Positions 7,396 to 50,481 of a DNA stretch of 53,808 nucleotides are shown piece after piece. This stretch comes from a virus, in the UHGV virus genome UHGV-0110229. One strand, 5' to 3'. The position numbers and the translations under genes are program-made. The notes under the pieces are model-generated. The model made no database searches. It had not been told where the DNA came from and saw only the letters and a program-made list of their open reading frames with translations. The first letter of the stretch is position 1. Every line of letters starts with the position of its first letter.

Positions 7396-8454
7396 TCAAA
7401 GAGCGCCACATCGTGTATCACGTAGCGTTTTTGGTTTAAGCAGGAAATCAAGTGTCGCAGTGAAGCCATCGCCGAAGTAAAAATCTGAAGCATTGTTTTT
7501 GAACGTTTCAAAGTAGGCGACAAAGCCGTTAATGCTTTTGTCTTTCAGGTAGTCAGTGAACGCATAAATCTTGCGTTCAAGATCCCGATCCAGTTCGGCA
7601 GGTGGCAACATGCCATCAAACGTGCTGTTAAATGCCTCCACTACGTCGGCAGCGTTTGCAGTGGCTGACAGTTTGCGCCATTTTTCAGCATCAGCCAGAT
7701 ACCCATCAAATTTAGTCACCCGGCAAATGTTTATAGGCTTAGGTGTTCCACCACGGCTACGCCATTGCGTTAAAGCCCACTCAATCACTAATGTGATCTC
7801 ATCCTCCGTATACGCTTTACGTGTTTTTGTTTCTGTCAGTAGTTCTACGAATGGCTTAGCATCACGACACTTGCATCCTGCCTTGTCGTTGTAGAAGGCC
7901 AGACAACGCAACGCCGCTTCGTTTACGCCATCCTGACTGACCGTTTTTTGTTCATTTTCGACAATACACGAAGTGTATATATCTTTTTCTCTTTCTTCTT
8001 CTTCTTCTAATTCTAATTCATGACCCTTTCCTGACCCTGTCATGACCCTATCATGACCTTTTTGTGTTTGATTGATTAGCTTTTCTAATTTTAATTGCTC
8101 CTTAGCTGTGTTTATTGCTGCCCTGTATGCGCTTTTAGAAGTCATTGATTGGTCAAGCCTTTTCAATAACTTTAAACAAGTTATGTGGCCCTGAGAACAT
8201 TCGAATAAACCAATTTCGATAAAGTATTTCATCATTTCTTCTATGCGCTTTTCAGTAGATCCTACGTTTCGCGCAATGATTCTTGCATCGTGTCGAAGGT
8301 CAAAATTAAGGTTGTGCTGATCTACGTCGTAAGTTATCAGTTCGAGGCAATACCAATAAAGACCGTAACCTTCCAGGCCATAATCTAATAAAACGTTTTG
8401 AAGTTTTTCATCGCGGTTCGCATCGCTATCATGCTTAAACCACTTCATAATCAT
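7396..8454 (-). CDS. Putative replication initiation protein (phage O/DnaD-like)
   Basis: 352 aa; N-terminus MKWFKHDSD..YGLEGYGLYWY resembles phage replisome-organiser N-terminal domains; acidic linker; sits upstream of the helicase. Confidence 0.5.
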   Translation of the reverse strand: MIMKWFKHDSDANRDEKLQNVLLDYGLEGYGLYWYCLELITYDVDQHNLNFDLRHDARIIARNVGSTEKRIEEMMKYFIEIGLFECSQGHITCLKLLKRLDQSMTSKSAYRAAINTAKEQLKLEKLINQTQKGHDRVMTGSGKGHELELEEEEEREKDIYTSCIVENEQKTVSQDGVNEAALRCLAFYNDKAGCKCRDAKPFVELLTETKTRKAYTEDEITLVIEWALTQWRSRGGTPKPINICRVTKFDGYLADAEKWRKLSATANAADVVEAFNSTFDGMLPPAELDRDLERKIYAFTDYLKDKSINGFVAYFETFKNNASDFYFGDGFTATLDFLLKPKTLRDTRCGAL

Positions 8455-8705
8455 TCCTCCGGCAACATAACTACATAGACACCACTAAACGCATCAATAC
8501 GGCAAACAAACCCTTTGCTAATTAATGCGGCGAAGGCATCATGTACCGTATGAACAGGAAGTTCACACATTTTTGCTACTTCTTCGCGTGATACGCTTGT
8601 CCGCCCCTGGCTATCCGCCGTCTCAGCAAGGGCGATCAAAACTAGTTTTTGAATCGGGCTGTTAAGTTTTACGTTCCATGCTTTGCTAATTATGTTCATG
8701 CTCAT
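8451..8705 (-). CDS. HTH DNA-binding protein, first gene of leftward early operon (Cro/cII-position)
   Basis: 84 aa from ATG at 8705..8703 with AGGAG RBS; HTH-like segment REEVAKMCELPVHTVHDAFAAL; divergent from cI. Confidence 0.45.
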   Translation of the reverse strand: MSMNIISKAWNVKLNSPIQKLVLIALAETADSQGRTSVSREEVAKMCELPVHTVHDAFAALISKGFVCRIDAFSGVYVVMLPEE

Positions 8706-8814
8706 CGTGTTTTCTCCTATGGTTAGAGTGAACGCGCTGGCGGGCATCCAATTAGCATTAGATAGCAGTGACTGACCGCTCAACAGATCCCGCCGTTGCG
8801 TGATATTTGTTTTT

Positions 8815-8846
8815 CGCTTCGCAGCGACACCGGATTTTTAAAGAGC
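8815..8846 (-). promoter_or_regulatory. nut-like site (boxA + boxB-type hairpin) for the leftward operon
   Basis: On the minus strand: AGCTCTTTAAAAATCCGG followed by hairpin CGCT-GCGA-AGCG; shares the 17-mer GCTCTTTAAAAATCCGG with the site at 17292. Confidence 0.5.
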
Positions 8847-8887
8847 TTTTAAGGTATGTTCCTTTTGTGCTTTCCATTATCTTTTTT

Positions 8888-8903
8888 CTTGCATCCTTGC
8901 AAG
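8888..8903. promoter_or_regulatory. Candidate operator palindrome in the cI/cro-side intergenic region
   Basis: CTTGCA-TCCT-TGCAAG perfect 6-bp inverted repeat; further TGCAAG/CTTGCA half-sites at 8921 and 8976. Confidence 0.35.
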
Positions 8904-9011
8904 TATGGACTTACCTTGTCTGCAAGTTTACAGAATGGCGTTAACAGGTCAAGGATTGAAAAATACATTTTGTGACTTGCATCAAACTTTTTTAGCTTAT
9001 AGGGTAGCGAC

Positions 9012-9659
9012 ATGAAAACAAAATGGTATGACTTGGCAAAACAACTCATGCGGGCGCAGGGCATGAGTCAGGATTCACTGGCTGATCTCATGGGGATAAC
9101 AAAAGGCGGCTTGTCGCACTGGCTGAACGGTCGCCGTGAGCCAAATCTTGAAGATATTGCGCGGATCATGCGGGCGCTTGGGCGTCGGCAATTCACTGTC
9201 ACACATGATGGGATGGTCATCGATGATTCTGTTTCTAACACGTTACCGGGAGCGCCACCGCGTGATTTAGGCAGTTACCCGGTTGTTGACTGGAAGGACG
9301 CAGTAAACAATATGGAAGATGCAAGGCGATCAACATTACCACACGTTACAACTAGCGTTATTTGTTCTGATGATAGTTATTGGCTGGTAGCTAAAGGCGA
9401 ATCAATGAACGCTCCGCAAGGATTGAGTATACCAGCGGGGACGATGATACTTGTCGATCCGCACGCGCCAGCTATTGACGGCAAACTAGTTATAGCCCAA
9501 CTGGAGGAAGGGCAAACTCCTACGTTTAAACAGCTTGTTATTGATGGAGGTCAAAGGCTTTTACGTTCACTCAATCCGCTGTATCCACCGATCCCTATGA
9601 ATCCAGAATCTAAAATCATAGGTGTGGTAGTGGATGCGAAGATCGTAAACCTGCCATAA
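9012..9659 (+). CDS. cI: CI-type prophage repressor (HTH + S24 LexA-like autopeptidase)
   Basis: 215 aa; N-terminal HTH (QDSLADLMGITKGGLSHWLNG); C-terminal S24 motifs (AKGESM Ser, later Lys). Confidence 0.85.
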   Translation: MKTKWYDLAKQLMRAQGMSQDSLADLMGITKGGLSHWLNGRREPNLEDIARIMRALGRRQFTVTHDGMVIDDSVSNTLPGAPPRDLGSYPVVDWKDAVNNMEDARRSTLPHVTTSVICSDDSYWLVAKGESMNAPQGLSIPAGTMILVDPHAPAIDGKLVIAQLEEGQTPTFKQLVIDGGQRLLRSLNPLYPPIPMNPESKIIGVVVDAKIVNLP

Positions 9660-9664
9660 ACACT

Positions 9665-9689
9665 AGCCGCCGAATGGCGGCTTTTCTTT
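9665..9689 (+). terminator. Rho-independent terminator after cI
   Basis: AGCCGCC-GAAT-GGCGGCT stem-loop followed by TTTTCTTTG. Confidence 0.6.
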
Positions 9690-9781
9690 GCTAAAAAACA
9701 CCAAAACGTAAACAGAAAACCATGTTTATCATTTAAATATCAAGTGCTTATAAAATTTTATAAAAAAGTATACAAAATGTG

Positions 9782-9819
9782 TTGACTCGTGTTTTTACGG
9801 GGCGTATATTTCGAGTCAA
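9782..9819 (+). promoter_or_regulatory. Sigma70 promoter (PL-like) embedded in an operator palindrome
   Basis: TTGACT-17 nt-TATATT; flanked by perfect inverted repeat TTGACTCG (9782-9789) / CGAGTCAA (9812-9819); AT-rich upstream. Confidence 0.6.
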
Positions 9820-9852
9820 AAGGAGGAAGCAAGGCAGGGAAAGAAGGTTACT

Positions 9853-9890
9853 TGCTCTTTAATAATCTGGTCAGCCGCTGGAAGTGCGGC
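9853..9890 (+). promoter_or_regulatory. nutL-like site (boxA + boxB hairpin)
   Basis: TGCTCTTTAATAA matches boxA (rrn-type TGCTCTTTAACAA); then hairpin GCCGC-TGGAAGT-GCGGC; lies between promoter and the N-like gene. Confidence 0.6.
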
Positions 9891-9946
9891 AATTAACGAA
9901 GATGATTTTTTATTAAGTATCATCAAGGATATAAGGAGATCAGATC

Positions 9947-10237
9947 ATGACAGTTACAATCATGTATGGCAAATGTGACAGTAAACTGAATGCCAGGGAA
10001 CGCAGAAGAATAAAAAGAGAAAACGAAAGAAAATCATCACCTGCAATTAATAAAACAGACAATGTGGATAAAGCTATTCGCTTTGCAAACGAGGAAAGAT
10101 GCAAACCAAATAGCATTAAAGAACGTCGCAAAGGAGCAGTAAAATGGTATACGGAAAATGAAAGCGGCAACTACTACCACGCAACGCAACCACGCCATTT
10201 AGGGGAAAAACCACTTGATAAAGTCCGTTACCATTAA
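9947..10237 (+). CDS. N-type transcription antiterminator (P22 gp24-like, N-terminal arginine-rich motif)
   Basis: 96 aa; N-terminus MTVTIMYGKCDSKLNARERRRIKRE resembles P22 N as recalled (MTVITYGKS..NAKTRRHERRRK); AGGAG RBS; first gene after promoter and nut. Confidence 0.7.
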   Translation: MTVTIMYGKCDSKLNARERRRIKRENERKSSPAINKTDNVDKAIRFANEERCKPNSIKERRKGAVKWYTENESGNYYHATQPRHLGEKPLDKVRYH

Positions 10238-14222: not shown

Positions 14223-14415
14223 ACAGTATAAAGAATGGAAGATTCCAGAATCAGCAACAAAGGCAGCGCCCGGAAACTTTTCGGGCGTTTATTTTTATAT
14301 GGAAGGGAAATGGTATTTCGGCAGCAGGCCGGATCACTATTATCAAGAAATATGCAAGCCTCATGTGTGGGATATTAAGGAACGCGTGCAAGGTGGTGTA
14401 ATAGACGAGGTTTAA
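14212..14415 (+). CDS. Hypothetical protein
   Basis: 67 aa ORF. Confidence 0.3.
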   Translation: MKFKQYKEWKIPESATKAAPGNFSGVYFYMEGKWYFGSRPDHYYQEICKPHVWDIKERVQGGVIDEV

Positions 14416-14416
14416 A

Positions 14417-14653
14417 ATGGTTAAGAGCTTTTTTAACTGGTTGGGGGCGTGGCTTTTGGCTACGCTTTTTGTTTTTTTGGTGTTCAGCGGCGGCATCGTC
14501 ATATTTACGCTGGCTGTGATGTTTGTTACATGGTCAGTACCTGAGTTTAATGACTTGGGATCTATTCTTACCATAGCCCGCGCTTTATTGGCTGTTAGCT
14601 CATTTATTGGTTTTTGCTGGACTGTAGCGCCTGATTGGGGTGATGAATGGTGA
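14417..14653 (+). CDS. Small membrane protein (2 predicted TM helices)
   Basis: 78 aa, two hydrophobic stretches. Confidence 0.35.
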   Translation: MVKSFFNWLGAWLLATLFVFLVFSGGIVIFTLAVMFVTWSVPEFNDLGSILTIARALLAVSSFIGFCWTVAPDWGDEW

Positions 14654-15930: not shown

Positions 15931-16414
15931 CAGGTTATTGGCCTGCGTTTACGTCGCCGTTTTCGTGATCATCAACCTTATTGTTAACCATTGCGGTCCG
16001 TGGGTAATTCCTATCACCACGGTAGCCGTAGTGTGTGTCAATATGATGATCCGCGACTTTCTGTTATATGACGGCGGCCTGAAATGGTCGGCTACAACAT
16101 GCGCCGCCGCTGGCGCAATCACGGTGCTGATAAATTATGACGCAGGGATGGTGGCAATCGCGTCATTCGTCGCGGTTGTTTCTGGTGCGCTTATATCTGG
16201 CGGCGTTTACCGGGTTTTACCTGGTGATTTCGATTCGAAACGCTGGCCTGCAAATATAGCGTCAGCCATTGGCGATGCGTTGATTTTCCCTACGTTATCG
16301 TTTATGGCATTCATGCCGGAAATATCAGCAATGCAATTCATCTCAAAAATGGCAGCGGTAACGGTGATCACTATCATCATGCGCCGCTATTTCACGTTTG
16401 AGGGCAAAAAATGA
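15902..16414 (+). CDS. Integral membrane protein (4-5 predicted TM helices), function unknown
   Basis: 170 aa, strongly hydrophobic throughout; lies between two methyltransferase-like genes. Confidence 0.45.
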   Translation: MTQMKKVTIDRLLACVYVAVFVIINLIVNHCGPWVIPITTVAVVCVNMMIRDFLLYDGGLKWSATTCAAAGAITVLINYDAGMVAIASFVAVVSGALISGGVYRVLPGDFDSKRWPANIASAIGDALIFPTLSFMAFMPEISAMQFISKMAAVTVITIIMRRYFTFEGKK

Positions 16415-17193
16415 GCAAGGGTAAACACTGGTTAAATAATTGGCTTAGAAGTTGGGTTGTGTGGTCGCTGTACGACGGCAGCGGGTACGCCGTTAAAGAT
16501 TGGGCGGAAGCAGGATATAAGTGCTATTGCTTCAACTATGACGGCGCAAATCACGGCGATTATGAAGGCGTTAAAATCATTCATCCGAATATTGAATACG
16601 TTAACGTGTGGATTGACAGCCATTTCCTGGTAATGTTCTCCCCTGAATTGTCTGTTTATCCAGAGCCTGACATTATCTTGGGTTTTCCTCCATGCGACGA
16701 TCTCGCCGTGTCTGGCGCTCGCTGGTTCGCTGATAAACGGAAAAAAGATCCTGACTTCCAGGTGAAGGCGGCGAATAGCGCAAAACTGGTAGAAAAACTG
16801 GCGGATATGCACAACGTTCCGTGGATGGTGGAAAATCCGGTGGGAGCACTGTCAACGCTATGGCGCAAACCTGATTTTATCTTCAACCCGTGCGCTTACG
16901 GTGGCTACCTGCCTGAAGATGACAAACATCCTGCTTTCCCTGATGTTTACCCGCCGCGAGACGCGTACACGAAGAAAACTTGTATTTGGTGCGGCAACGG
17001 ATTTAAACAGCCGCTTTTTAGACCTGTAGATCTTAACTCTGGTGATAACCCTGGGTGGGCGAAAACCGGAGGAAGGACGAAACGAACAAAGATGATCCGC
17101 TCACTAACGCCGCGTGGCTTTGCCCGTGCTGTATTCCTGGCTAACGACCTGGCCATCAATCGTGCTACGCTCAACCGCGTTTTACCGGACTGA
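16411..17193 (+). CDS. DNA C5-cytosine methyltransferase-like protein with atypical PPCD motif
   Basis: 260 aa; motif I-like LYDGSG, motif IV-like GFPPCDD (Cys kept, Q replaced), motif VI-like VENPVG; short variable region. Confidence 0.45.
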   Translation: MSKGKHWLNNWLRSWVVWSLYDGSGYAVKDWAEAGYKCYCFNYDGANHGDYEGVKIIHPNIEYVNVWIDSHFLVMFSPELSVYPEPDIILGFPPCDDLAVSGARWFADKRKKDPDFQVKAANSAKLVEKLADMHNVPWMVENPVGALSTLWRKPDFIFNPCAYGGYLPEDDKHPAFPDVYPPRDAYTKKTCIWCGNGFKQPLFRPVDLNSGDNPGWAKTGGRTKRTKMIRSLTPRGFARAVFLANDLAINRATLNRVLPD

Positions 17194-17290
17194 AATTTAC
17201 AAAATGGCGTCATTGCGTGATGTGGATCACATAATGGCGCTTTTTACCTTGTTCTGACGTATCCATTTTGTATACTTCAAACAAGCAAAA

Positions 17291-17325
17291 TGCTCTTTAA
17301 AAATCCGGCAGCGCTGAAATGCGTA
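17291..17325 (+). promoter_or_regulatory. Internal nut-like site (boxA + weak hairpin) upstream of the ninF/ninG-like genes
   Basis: TGCTCTTTAAAAATCCGG then CGC-TGAAAT-GCG; the 17-mer GCTCTTTAAAAATCCGG is identical to the leftward nut-like site. Confidence 0.4.
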
Positions 17326-17543: not shown

Positions 17544-18149
17544 ATGCAAAACCCTAAAAAACCCATAAGACGCCGTTGCAAATGCTGCGGCGTTTTTTTT
17601 GAGCCTAAATATCACAATCAAACATGGTGCAGCGATGAATGTCTGGAAGAACTGAAATTTGATCAGCTATGTCGCGATCGTGAGAAGGCTATGAAGGCTA
17701 TGGAACGGAAGAAACGCCGTGATAGCCAGCGTGAGGAACGCAACCGGAAGCGGAAGCAGTTAAATCCGCGCAGCTACTGGATTAAACAGGCGCAAAACGT
17801 TTTTAACGCTTATATACGCGAGCGTGACGCGCTATTGCCGTGCATATCATGCGGGACTTACTACGGTGAGCAATGCGGGTGGGATGCAGGCCATTACAGG
17901 ACGGTAGCCGCCGCCGGACACCTTCGCTTTAACGATGATAATTGTCACAAGCAATGCAGGCACTGCAACCAGACACTAGACGGCAACATCGGAGGGTATC
18001 GCCCTGCGCTGATTCGAAAAATTGGCCTCGCCAGGGTAGTAGCTCTGGAGAACAACAACGAAACTCACAAATGGACGATAGAAGAATGCAAGGAAATCAT
18101 AAAAGTCTATCAGGCTAAATTAGACGCCTTAAGGAGAAAGGCAGCATGA
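17544..18149 (+). CDS. ninG: NinG/Rap-family recombination protein
   Basis: Start at MQNPKKP (17544); Cys-rich N-terminus (RRCKCCGVFFEP) and conserved HYRT..G..RFN..NCHKQCRHCN pattern typical of NinG. Confidence 0.7.
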   Translation: MQNPKKPIRRRCKCCGVFFEPKYHNQTWCSDECLEELKFDQLCRDREKAMKAMERKKRRDSQREERNRKRKQLNPRSYWIKQAQNVFNAYIRERDALLPCISCGTYYGEQCGWDAGHYRTVAAAGHLRFNDDNCHKQCRHCNQTLDGNIGGYRPALIRKIGLARVVALENNNETHKWTIEECKEIIKVYQAKLDALRRKAA

Positions 18150-18786: not shown

Positions 18787-18965
18787 AAAACGAAATTAAA
18801 GATCTGCAAATAGATATTCAGCGCGATGAGCATGATTTAGAAACGGTCCGACAAATCCAGGCTTTTCATATGCGCGAATTGCTTGCATTGAAAGAGCTTG
18901 AGAGAAAGTTAGTTCAGTCTATTTCTGATCGTAAACACCTTATTGCTCGTTACGGGGGCAAGTAA
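18783..18965 (+). CDS. Hypothetical protein
   Basis: 60 aa ORF. Confidence 0.3.
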   Translation: MKNEIKDLQIDIQRDEHDLETVRQIQAFHMRELLALKELERKLVQSISDRKHLIARYGGK

Positions 18966-19687
18966 TGAATCTGGAATCTATTCTCAAATTCCACTTCCCA
19001 AAATCACCGCGTTTATCAGATGAAAGCCGGGGCACGTCCCCGGATGCACTTAATACTACGGATGCACTAACAGCAGCAGGCATGGCGCAATCGCGCGTAG
19101 AGCTTGGTTATAGCGCTTTTTTAGGGAAGATGGAACTATCACAAGCCGAAAAACATAAGGCCGTAGTTTTGCTTACAGAGCGTTTAAGGACTATGGCAAA
19201 AGATTATGAATACGTTATGGAACTGGACGAGGCCAAACGCAATGATCTTATTATTCTTGTTGCCGTTTTCGCGTTTCGGGATTATTGCCAAAGCGCCGCG
19301 ACGGAAAAAACTTGCCCGGAGTGCGGCGGATATAAATTTACGTTTGACGACTACGGAGAAAAACACCTTTGCAAAAAATGCAAGGGGCATGGGACAGTTC
19401 GCAATCATTGTAAACAATGCAAGGGCCGTGGCGAAGTACCGGATAAAGCAGCCAGTGAAGCGGCGGAAATGCCAGTGTTCAAAACGTGCCAGCATTGCGG
19501 CGGGCGCGGGTACTCGCGTTTCCCTGTAGATCTTGTACGGCAGGCGGTTAATCAGCTTGTTTTTCCGGTAAGCCGATCAACATGGTGGAAAAAGTACCGG
19601 GCTTTCTATGAAGACGCCATTGCTGAATTGTTCAAAGAAGAGGCGCTGGCAGATAACGAAATTAAAAGAGTGACGCGGGGTGAATGA
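18965..19687 (+). CDS. DnaJ-type zinc-finger protein (4x CxxCxGxG); positional candidate for late antiterminator Q
   Basis: 240 aa; four motifs CPECGG, CKKCKGHG, CKQCKGRG, CQHCGGRG; located after ninG/rusA where Q sits in lambdoid phages; function not established. Confidence 0.4.
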   Translation: MNLESILKFHFPKSPRLSDESRGTSPDALNTTDALTAAGMAQSRVELGYSAFLGKMELSQAEKHKAVVLLTERLRTMAKDYEYVMELDEAKRNDLIILVAVFAFRDYCQSAATEKTCPECGGYKFTFDDYGEKHLCKKCKGHGTVRNHCKQCKGRGEVPDKAASEAAEMPVFKTCQHCGGRGYSRFPVDLVRQAVNQLVFPVSRSTWWKKYRAFYEDAIAELFKEEALADNEIKRVTRGE

Positions 19688-37594: not shown

Positions 37595-37751
37595 TTTCTT
37601 ATCCTCTTTTGCTTCCTCCGGTTAATCCGGCCTTTTAAGTCCCTTCGCTCTATCCCTTTTCTTTATCTTCTTTATACAAAATGTACTCGTTGAAGTGAAG
37701 CCATTTTGTATAAAATAGAGACGTGGATCACATTTCGTATGAGGTTAAATC

Positions 37752-50304: not shown

Positions 50305-50481
50305 TTTTGAACCCTCATTCTTGTTTGTTAATCCGGTTCACCCGGTGACTTAAATATCCGGCAAAACCACATTTCGTATATTGACACAGATCAACAAATA
50401 CATTTTGTGTAAGCAGAAAATGCAACACAGATCACAAAATGGTAGAATTATTCCGTTAATTAACAAAATGGAGTCATCGAG

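Follow-up and report, generated by a model that had tools for sequence, protein, structure and literature searches.

The stretch of DNA analysed here, 53.8 kb long and called the window throughout, carries a divergent early control region in which a promoter is followed by a boxA-plus-hairpin element on both strands. A small gene for an arginine-rich protein lies behind the rightward element, and a third such element is found further along the rightward operon, ahead of a Q-like gene. The features to which the text refers are, in map order:

8451 to 8705, minus strand: first gene of the leftward operon, encoding an HTH protein (PHROG 4617, E 1.6e-21; homologue of mEp021_14)
8814 to 8846, minus strand: nutL, with boxA GCTCTTTAAAAA at 8846-8835, spacer TCCGGTG and boxB UCGCU-GCGA-AGCGA at 8827-8814 (covariance model, 59.2 bits)
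8925 to 8952, minus strand: candidate leftward early promoter, TTGACC-16 nt-TAAACT, a 9/12 match upstream of nutL, putative in function
9012 to 9659, plus strand: CI-like repressor, the immunity gene (HTH_3 and Peptidase_S24 in Pfam, PHROG matches, homologue of Rep021)
9665 to 9689, plus strand: intrinsic terminator of the repressor transcript, a hairpin at 9665-9682 followed by a T-run (-13.8 kcal/mol, z -3.4), equivalent to mEp021 TERM_1
9782 to 9810, plus strand: early promoter of the gp17 operon, TTGACT-17 nt-TATATT (-35 at 9782-9787, -10 at 9805-9810), matching the sigma-70 consensus at 10/12 positions
9782 to 9819: perfect 8-bp inverted repeat that brackets this promoter, TTGACTCG (9782-9789) and CGAGTCAA (9812-9819)
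9853 to 9890, plus strand: nutR1, with boxA TGCTCTTTAATAA at 9853-9865, spacer TCTGGTCA and boxB GCCGC-UGGAAGU-GCGGC at 9874-9890 (covariance model, 51.1 bits)
9947 to 10237, plus strand: N-like antiterminator gene, 96 aa, orthologue of mEp021 gp17 (assigned by its ORF, PHROG 271 and identity to mEp021_17)
14265 to 14299, plus strand: strong intrinsic terminator in the rightward operon (-15.8 kcal/mol, z -3.3), equivalent to mEp021 TERM_3 and a candidate target of read-through
14443 to 14480, plus strand: second strong terminator-like hairpin with U-run in the rightward operon (-14.3 kcal/mol, z -4.6)
16411 to 17193: cytosine methyltransferase gene, directly before nutR2
17206 to 17245, plus strand: long imperfect hairpin with U5, terminator-like (-20.9 kcal/mol, z -4.6), equivalent to mEp021 TERM_4
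17291 to 17324, plus strand: nutR2, with boxA TGCTCTTTAAAAA, spacer TCCGGCA and boxB GCGC-UGAAAU-GCGU (covariance model, 58.8 bits)
18965 to 19687, plus strand: Q-like late antiterminator gene (PHROG 127, E 1.5e-78), downstream of nutR2

Since an integrase gene opens the window and a tail-fibre-sized ORF closes it, the window is a complete genome, that of a temperate coliphage of the mEpimmI (mEp021-like) group. Its 2-kb immunity region shares 90-94% DNA identity with the coliphages mEp515, mEp013, mEp044, mEp554, mEp021 and mEp010, and prophages in 35 of 5,426 complete E. coli genomes match the region with up to 97% identity. Gene order is the same as in mEp021, the repressor (the Rep021 homologue) is common to both, and the window has its three nut sites at the map positions set for the mEpimmI group. 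The product of the first leftward gene resembles the N-terminus of replication initiators, and replication genes come next in that operon; on the right arm nutR2 is followed by ninG, rusA and Q, in that order. Neither a match to an Rfam family nor a tRNA gene was found anywhere in the 53.8-kb window.

The start codon (ATG) of the 96-aa ORF follows an AAGGAG at a distance of 8 nt. The ORF product carries the arginines R17, R19, R20, R21 and R24 and an arginine-rich motif (ARM) at residues 15-29 (NARERRRIKRENERK), and is 97.9% identical over 96 aa to mEp021 Gp17 (mEp021_17); the Gp17 homologues of the six mEp phages are 95-98% identical to it. PHROG 271, 'anti-termination protein N-like', takes in the window protein (E 8.8e-12, residues 2-95) as well as P22 N (E 6.9e-40) and lambda N (E 4.1e-23), and it is by way of this family that the protein is homologous to the lambda-type N proteins, small and basic with an N-terminal ARM. 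The first-pass annotation, made from the sequence alone, had described an arginine-rich protein closely resembling P22 N. The arginines are present and BLASTP against P22 gp24 aligned 11/20 identical residues (E 0.007 as a single comparison), but the alignment covers residues 1-20 only, the rest of the protein remains unaligned and 'closely' is an overstatement. The Pfam model for P22 N (PF25694, N_peptide) gave 17.0 bits (E 0.0085), under its gathering threshold of 27.9; for reference, with the same model P22 N reaches 152 bits and lambda N 16.4. Alignment to P22 gp24 and other N proteins, which had been suggested as a check, recovered the N-terminus and a short internal motif but no pairwise match to lambda N. 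In hhalign the profile of the protein family aligned with P22 N over 45 columns (40% identity, E 0.0088), which take in the N-terminus and ARM as well as a DNVDKAIRFA / DRVTKAISLA block. With lambda N, BLASTP aligned nothing and so gave no significant pairwise similarity, the profile alignment gave only RRKGAVKWYTE / ERKNQRTWYSK, a weak match in the C-terminal part, and the Pfam lambda N model (PF11438, N36; 92 bits for lambda N itself) did not match the window protein at E <= 0.1.

Judged by sequence searches, the protein's own family is narrow. A tblastn search of 50,697 phage records at E <= 1 returned mEp-group phages only, with neither P22 nor lambda among them, and phmmer against PDB chains gave chance matches, none of them an N-peptide structure. 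Among 5.8 billion proteins, a word-indexed search picked out 49 clusters, none of them named and every one derived from E. coli or metagenomes; RefSeq and metagenome records still label the protein 'hypothetical protein'. A single further, distant relative, the 115-aa P0050, came from an exhaustive profile search over 1.84 billion representatives, which gave no bridge to P22 N or lambda N. The most conserved part of the family is a C-terminal motif, KWY-ENESGNY-HATQPR-LGEKPLDKVRYH, which is absent from P22 N and specific to the mEp lineage.

Upstream of the gene, the boxA and the hairpin GCCGC-TGGAAGT-GCGGC that had been reported lie at 9853-9890 as described, and the opposite-strand boxA and hairpin upstream of the leftward operon were likewise confirmed, at 8846-8814. 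Because the minus-strand nutL follows the divergent promoter, nutL and nutR1 flank the CI-like repressor gene (9012-9659), and the boxA and spacer of nutL form an 18-nt inverted copy of those of nutR1 (89% complementary). The earlier description of two nut sites flanking the immunity region holds for both of them but is incomplete, having missed nutR2 at 17291-17324. The extended 17-mer GCTCTTTAANAATCYGG (boxA plus spacer) occurs three times in the window, the third copy at 17292, versus not once in 100 shuffles. The boxA sequences of the window are near the rrn consensus GCTCTTTAA, a 9-mer with three copies versus 0.62 expected.

Through the protein, 42 related viral contigs were gathered and all their boxA-plus-hairpin sites extracted; an alignment of the 22 distinct nut site variants served as the source of a covariance model. 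Run over the 53.8 kb, the model found exactly three sites, at 51-59 bits, with the next-best hit at 9.3 bits. Of the 44 related sequences, 35 retain the full set of three, most of the others being truncated contigs, and the three-site layout persists even in a relative with just 72% protein identity. At two loci outside the training set, the model detects nut sites beside P0050 at 35 and 18 bits, and at the P22 locus it ranks the annotated nutR and nutL first, weakly, at 11.8 and 9.3 bits.

RNA folding of the hairpins, also suggested as a check, gave a mixed outcome: the energies are not significant in context, but the stems covary across relatives. The isolated boxB hairpins have folding z-scores of about -2 as 20-nt pieces and of -0.3 to -0.5 in context, which is unremarkable, so that the case for boxB relies on comparative evidence. 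In the alignment of 22 distinct variants, 97.9% of the stem cells pair, and in slid-alignment controls the figure drops to 17-63%. The outer pair occurs as five pair types (CG, UA, GU, AU and GC), and one of the inner pairs has undergone a GC-to-AU double change. The loops are GCGA in nutL (natural variants GUGA and GCAA), GAAA in nutR2 and GGAA(G) in nutR1, where it lies within a 7-nt UGGAAGU that is unlike the loops of the other two sites; in the 72%-identity relative the nutR1 loop is UGAAAU, and its stem GCAC/GUGC is compensated. The hairpins on either side of P0050 read CGCU-GAAA-AGCG and UUGCU-GAAA-AGCAA, the leftward site of that locus following a cro-like gene, as in lambda. None of the loops in the window is a GNRA-like pentaloop of the kind found in lambda (GAAAA, GAAGA) and P22 (GACAA); each of them can be interpreted as a GNRA tetraloop with U-A, U.U or U.G as the closing pair.

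The promoter TTGACT-17-TATATT had been placed correctly by the first-pass annotation. In a promoter scan it is the top sigma-70 match within the first 20 kb, and both hexamers are invariant in mEp021 and in all relatives with the upstream type of the window. An A/T-rich stretch precedes the promoter, after the repressor terminator. The perfect 8-bp inverted repeat reported around the promoter exists in the window but is not conserved in mEp021 or in two further relatives (L011 and L039): mEp021, of the same immunity as the window, carries the degraded form TTGACTCT / CGAATCAA, and the repeat is degraded in the other two as well. A role as operator was rejected on the ground of this lack of conservation within the immunity group, and the repeat is probably incidental. 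The candidate leftward promoter has an invariant -10 in 24 distinct relatives and a -35 of TTGA(C/T)C. When folded, the 150-nt leader that separates nutL from the first gene of the leftward operon showed no significant structure (z -1.1). Two upstream types occur among the relatives. In the type to which mEp021 belongs, an insert of about 230 bp, annotated as gp16, separates the promoter from nutR1, with the breakpoint of homology exactly at boxA; in the window type this insert is absent, which is why nutR1 lies about 36 nt from the start site. Among the terminators, the hairpin at 17206-17245 ends 47 nt upstream of nutR2 and is 97% identical to the mEp021 TERM_4 region, and for mEp021 TERM_2 no equivalent was found in the window.

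According to the summary given in Front Microbiol 2025 (PMC11893012), which cites Valencia-Toxqui et al. 2023 (Arch Virol 168:92) for the Gp17 work, experiments have shown mEp021 Gp17 to be an N-lambda-like antiterminator of early transcription, with nutL, nutR1 and nutR2 as its sites. The same source describes the phages of the mEp collection as Nus-dependent and protein-dependent read-through as reported for mEp021. It gives R17, R19, R20 and R24 as conserved across all 48 group members, and it locates the sites of Gp17 action next to the repressor gene (nutL), ahead of gp17 (nutR1) and past a cytosine-methyltransferase gene (nutR2) (PMC11893012). Since the three sites of the window lie at exactly the published positions and nutR2 is identical to that of mEp021, the antitermination system of the window is a known one, and the window adds a further member to the mEpimmI Gp17/nut group.

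The reading of the locus as an N/nut antitermination system, proposed from the sequence in the first pass, is borne out by PHROG 271, the covarying boxB and the 98% identity to mEp021 Gp17, and lambda-N-type processive early antitermination by the 96-aa protein and the nut sites is very probably what operates in the window. We infer that the Gp17-dependent antitermination of mEp021 holds in the window genome too, together with the target terminators and the role of nutR2 as set out here. In the absence of the CI-like repressor, the two divergent early promoters would fire. The rightward transcript is predicted to start at about 9817, to expose nutR1 some 36 nt into the RNA and to continue into the coding region of the N-like protein; the leftward transcript would carry nutL ahead of the replication genes. 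The arginine-rich N-terminus would bind the boxB stem-loop on the nascent RNA and the near-consensus boxA (GCUCUUUAA) would recruit host NusB/NusE, and the resulting complex, with NusA and NusG, would stay on RNA polymerase and let it pass terminators further downstream. Along the right arm, polymerase should then read through the candidates at 14265-14299, 14443-14480 and 17206-17245 towards Q, and on the left arm antiterminated transcription would run through the replication genes. Located just past the last terminator, nutR2 may load or renew the modification before ninG-rusA-Q and thereby permit synthesis of the late regulator Q; Q expression is likely to be the pay-off of early antitermination.

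Some of the same observations can be arranged differently. The boxA sequences lie so near the rrn consensus GCTCTTTAA that boxA alone might confer Nus-factor antitermination, as in rRNA operons, leaving the 96-aa protein to do something else, for example Nun-like exclusion or termination directed against other phages. The merely remote likeness of the protein to characterised N proteins would fit such a division of labour, given the 17 bits in Pfam against a threshold of 27.9 and an exhaustive HMM search that falls short of them. However, a covarying hairpin stands at a fixed distance after every boxA, the gene, like N, has a nut site of its own immediately in front of it, and Gp17 is, in the published summary, required for early antitermination in mEp021 (PMC11893012), all of which makes boxA acting by itself highly improbable. 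A related doubt concerns the hairpins, which could have arisen by chance, or serve in RNA processing or leader stability next to a conserved boxA, instead of being protein-binding boxB elements. Their folding energies in context are ordinary (z -0.3 to -0.5), and the three loops differ from one another in sequence and length (GCGA, UGAAAU, UGGAAGU). Against this, pairing is kept through five pair types and double changes at paralogous and orthologous sites alike, the loop variants all stay within GNRA (GCGA, GUGA, GCAA, GAAA) while the boxA spacing is fixed, and the same design recurs beside the 115-aa distant homologue P0050; we find it scarcely credible that these hairpins are anything other than boxB.

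A different question is how transcription reaches nutR2. With a strong terminator only 47 nt upstream, the site could be served by a promoter of its own between the terminator at 17206-17245 and the boxA at 17291, in place of read-through from nutR1, and would then be a third, separately controlled entry point. A TATACT hexamer at 17272-17277 would suit this, as would the dispersed motif TATACAAAATG that flanks the spot (17196 and 17264-17274) and is also found at the gp17 promoter. Yet no acceptable -35 accompanies the hexamer, and the plus-strand promoter scan is empty there. Valencia-Toxqui and colleagues, in their 2023 study of mEp021, reportedly proposed that polymerase reads through to nutR2. 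We regard a separate promoter as unlikely.

The main value of these results lies in the correct annotation of the locus, with little beyond it: a protein labelled hypothetical is part of an antitermination system that has experimental support in the published summary and that occurs in a phage group often present in the human gut. To specialists in RNA-protein recognition, the tetraloop-like boxB loops with GNRA-only variants and a three-site layout conserved down to 72% protein identity may be of interest. It is conceivable, if rather doubtful, that the antiterminator recognises true GNRA tetraloops, not pentaloops, and that the post-terminator nutR2 forms a distinct re-loading or separately promoted module gating ninG-rusA-Q. 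If this were true, the group would use a structurally different mode of ARM-RNA recognition and a three-checkpoint variant of N antitermination.

Among the known systems mEp021 stands closest in its particulars. The sequences of nutL and nutR2 are identical in the two phages, all three sites occupy the same map positions, and the ARM arginines, the promoter hexamers and equivalents of TERM_1, TERM_3 and TERM_4 are held in common. The two differ in the boxA of nutR1, which is GCTCTTTAATAA in the window and GCTCATTAACAA in mEp021, and in the insert of about 230 bp (gp16), which mEp021 has and the window lacks; no counterpart of TERM_2 turned up in the window. With P22 the window has in common a small basic protein encoded by the first gene of the early operon behind its own nut site, an N-terminus of the form MTV-I-YGK...NA(K/R)xRR and an internal D-V-KAI--A block in gp24 (N), a near-consensus boxA GCTCTTTAA, with GCTCTTTAcCAATCTG of P22 nutR recurring in the extended boxA of the window, and Erf, kil and ssb-type genes downstream. 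Unlike these parts, the remainder of P22 N finds no alignment in the window protein; moreover, P22 uses a GACAA pentaloop as boxB, has two nut sites and places nutR after cro. The resemblance to lambda lies in the ARM protein, the boxA-spacer-boxB RNA, the Nus dependence of the phage group, the divergent early operons around cI with Q downstream, and the presence of N in PHROG 271. In contrast to the window, lambda has a weaker boxA (CGCTCTTA), boxB pentaloops (GAAAA and GAAGA) and two nut sites, whereas in the window the N gene shares its operon with the recombination genes, the nin genes and Q, and the replication genes are carried on the other arm.

A short asymmetric sequence, T(A/T)TAC(A/G)AAATG, is dispersed through the phage genome and occurs there 13 times with at most one mismatch against an expectation of 1.55, and none of 100 shuffles reached 13; its core, ACAAAATG, is present 18 times where 4.95 copies are expected. 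The copies are located as follows:

1176, 2187, 5134, 9769, 10236, 17196, 22270, 22933 and 37673, dispersed motif
17264-17274, 37702-37712, 50370-50380 and 50401-50411, (-) strand, dispersed motif

On visual comparison with the ORF list, almost every copy falls in an intergenic region or at the edge of one. One lies immediately 5' of the -35 element of the promoter of gp17, the N-like antiterminator gene, and another shares bases with the stop codon of gp17. Two more stand on either side of the terminator that precedes nutR2, the second rightward nut site, and inverted pairs are found at 37.7 kb and 50.4 kb. These positions are conserved among the relatives, the distant locus L046 included. 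The motif may act as a site of operator or 'stoperator' type, used by the repressor or by some other regulator.

Further elements are listed here:

8966-8985, divergent promoter region, TGTGACTTGCATCAAA
10268-10390, 40-aa ORF directly 3' of the N-like gene, weak match to lambda Kil
17574-17600, terminator-like hairpin followed by T8, CGTTGCAAATGCTGCGGCG TTTTTTTT

The first of these is kept across the relatives and resembles a CRP site (TGTGA-N6-TCACA), for which it is a candidate. The hairpin lies 3' of nutR2, within the ninG-like coding region. In mEp021 and most relatives the early promoter is separated from nutR1, the first rightward nut site, by a GC-rich insert of ~230 bp that is annotated as gp16 (38 aa; mEp021 locus 2610-2855, versus 9820-9852 in the window), which is absent from the window and nine other loci; the homology breakpoint coincides exactly with boxA.

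There is no cro-like gene between the candidate leftward promoter and the replication genes (8706-9011 and 8451-8705 (-) of the window), and the first leftward gene, 8451-8705 (-), encodes an 84-aa HTH protein (PHROG 4617) that is similar to replication initiators in their N-terminal part. L046 carries a cro-like gene (75 aa, HTH_3; L046 3564-3791 (-)), and there the nut site follows the cro-like gene, which is the arrangement of lambda. The ORF at 10268-10390 matches PHROG 34942 (E 6e-30) and scores 21 bits against Pfam Lambda_Kil, below the cut-off; the N-like gene and this weakly Kil-like ORF mirror the N-kil-erf order of P22.
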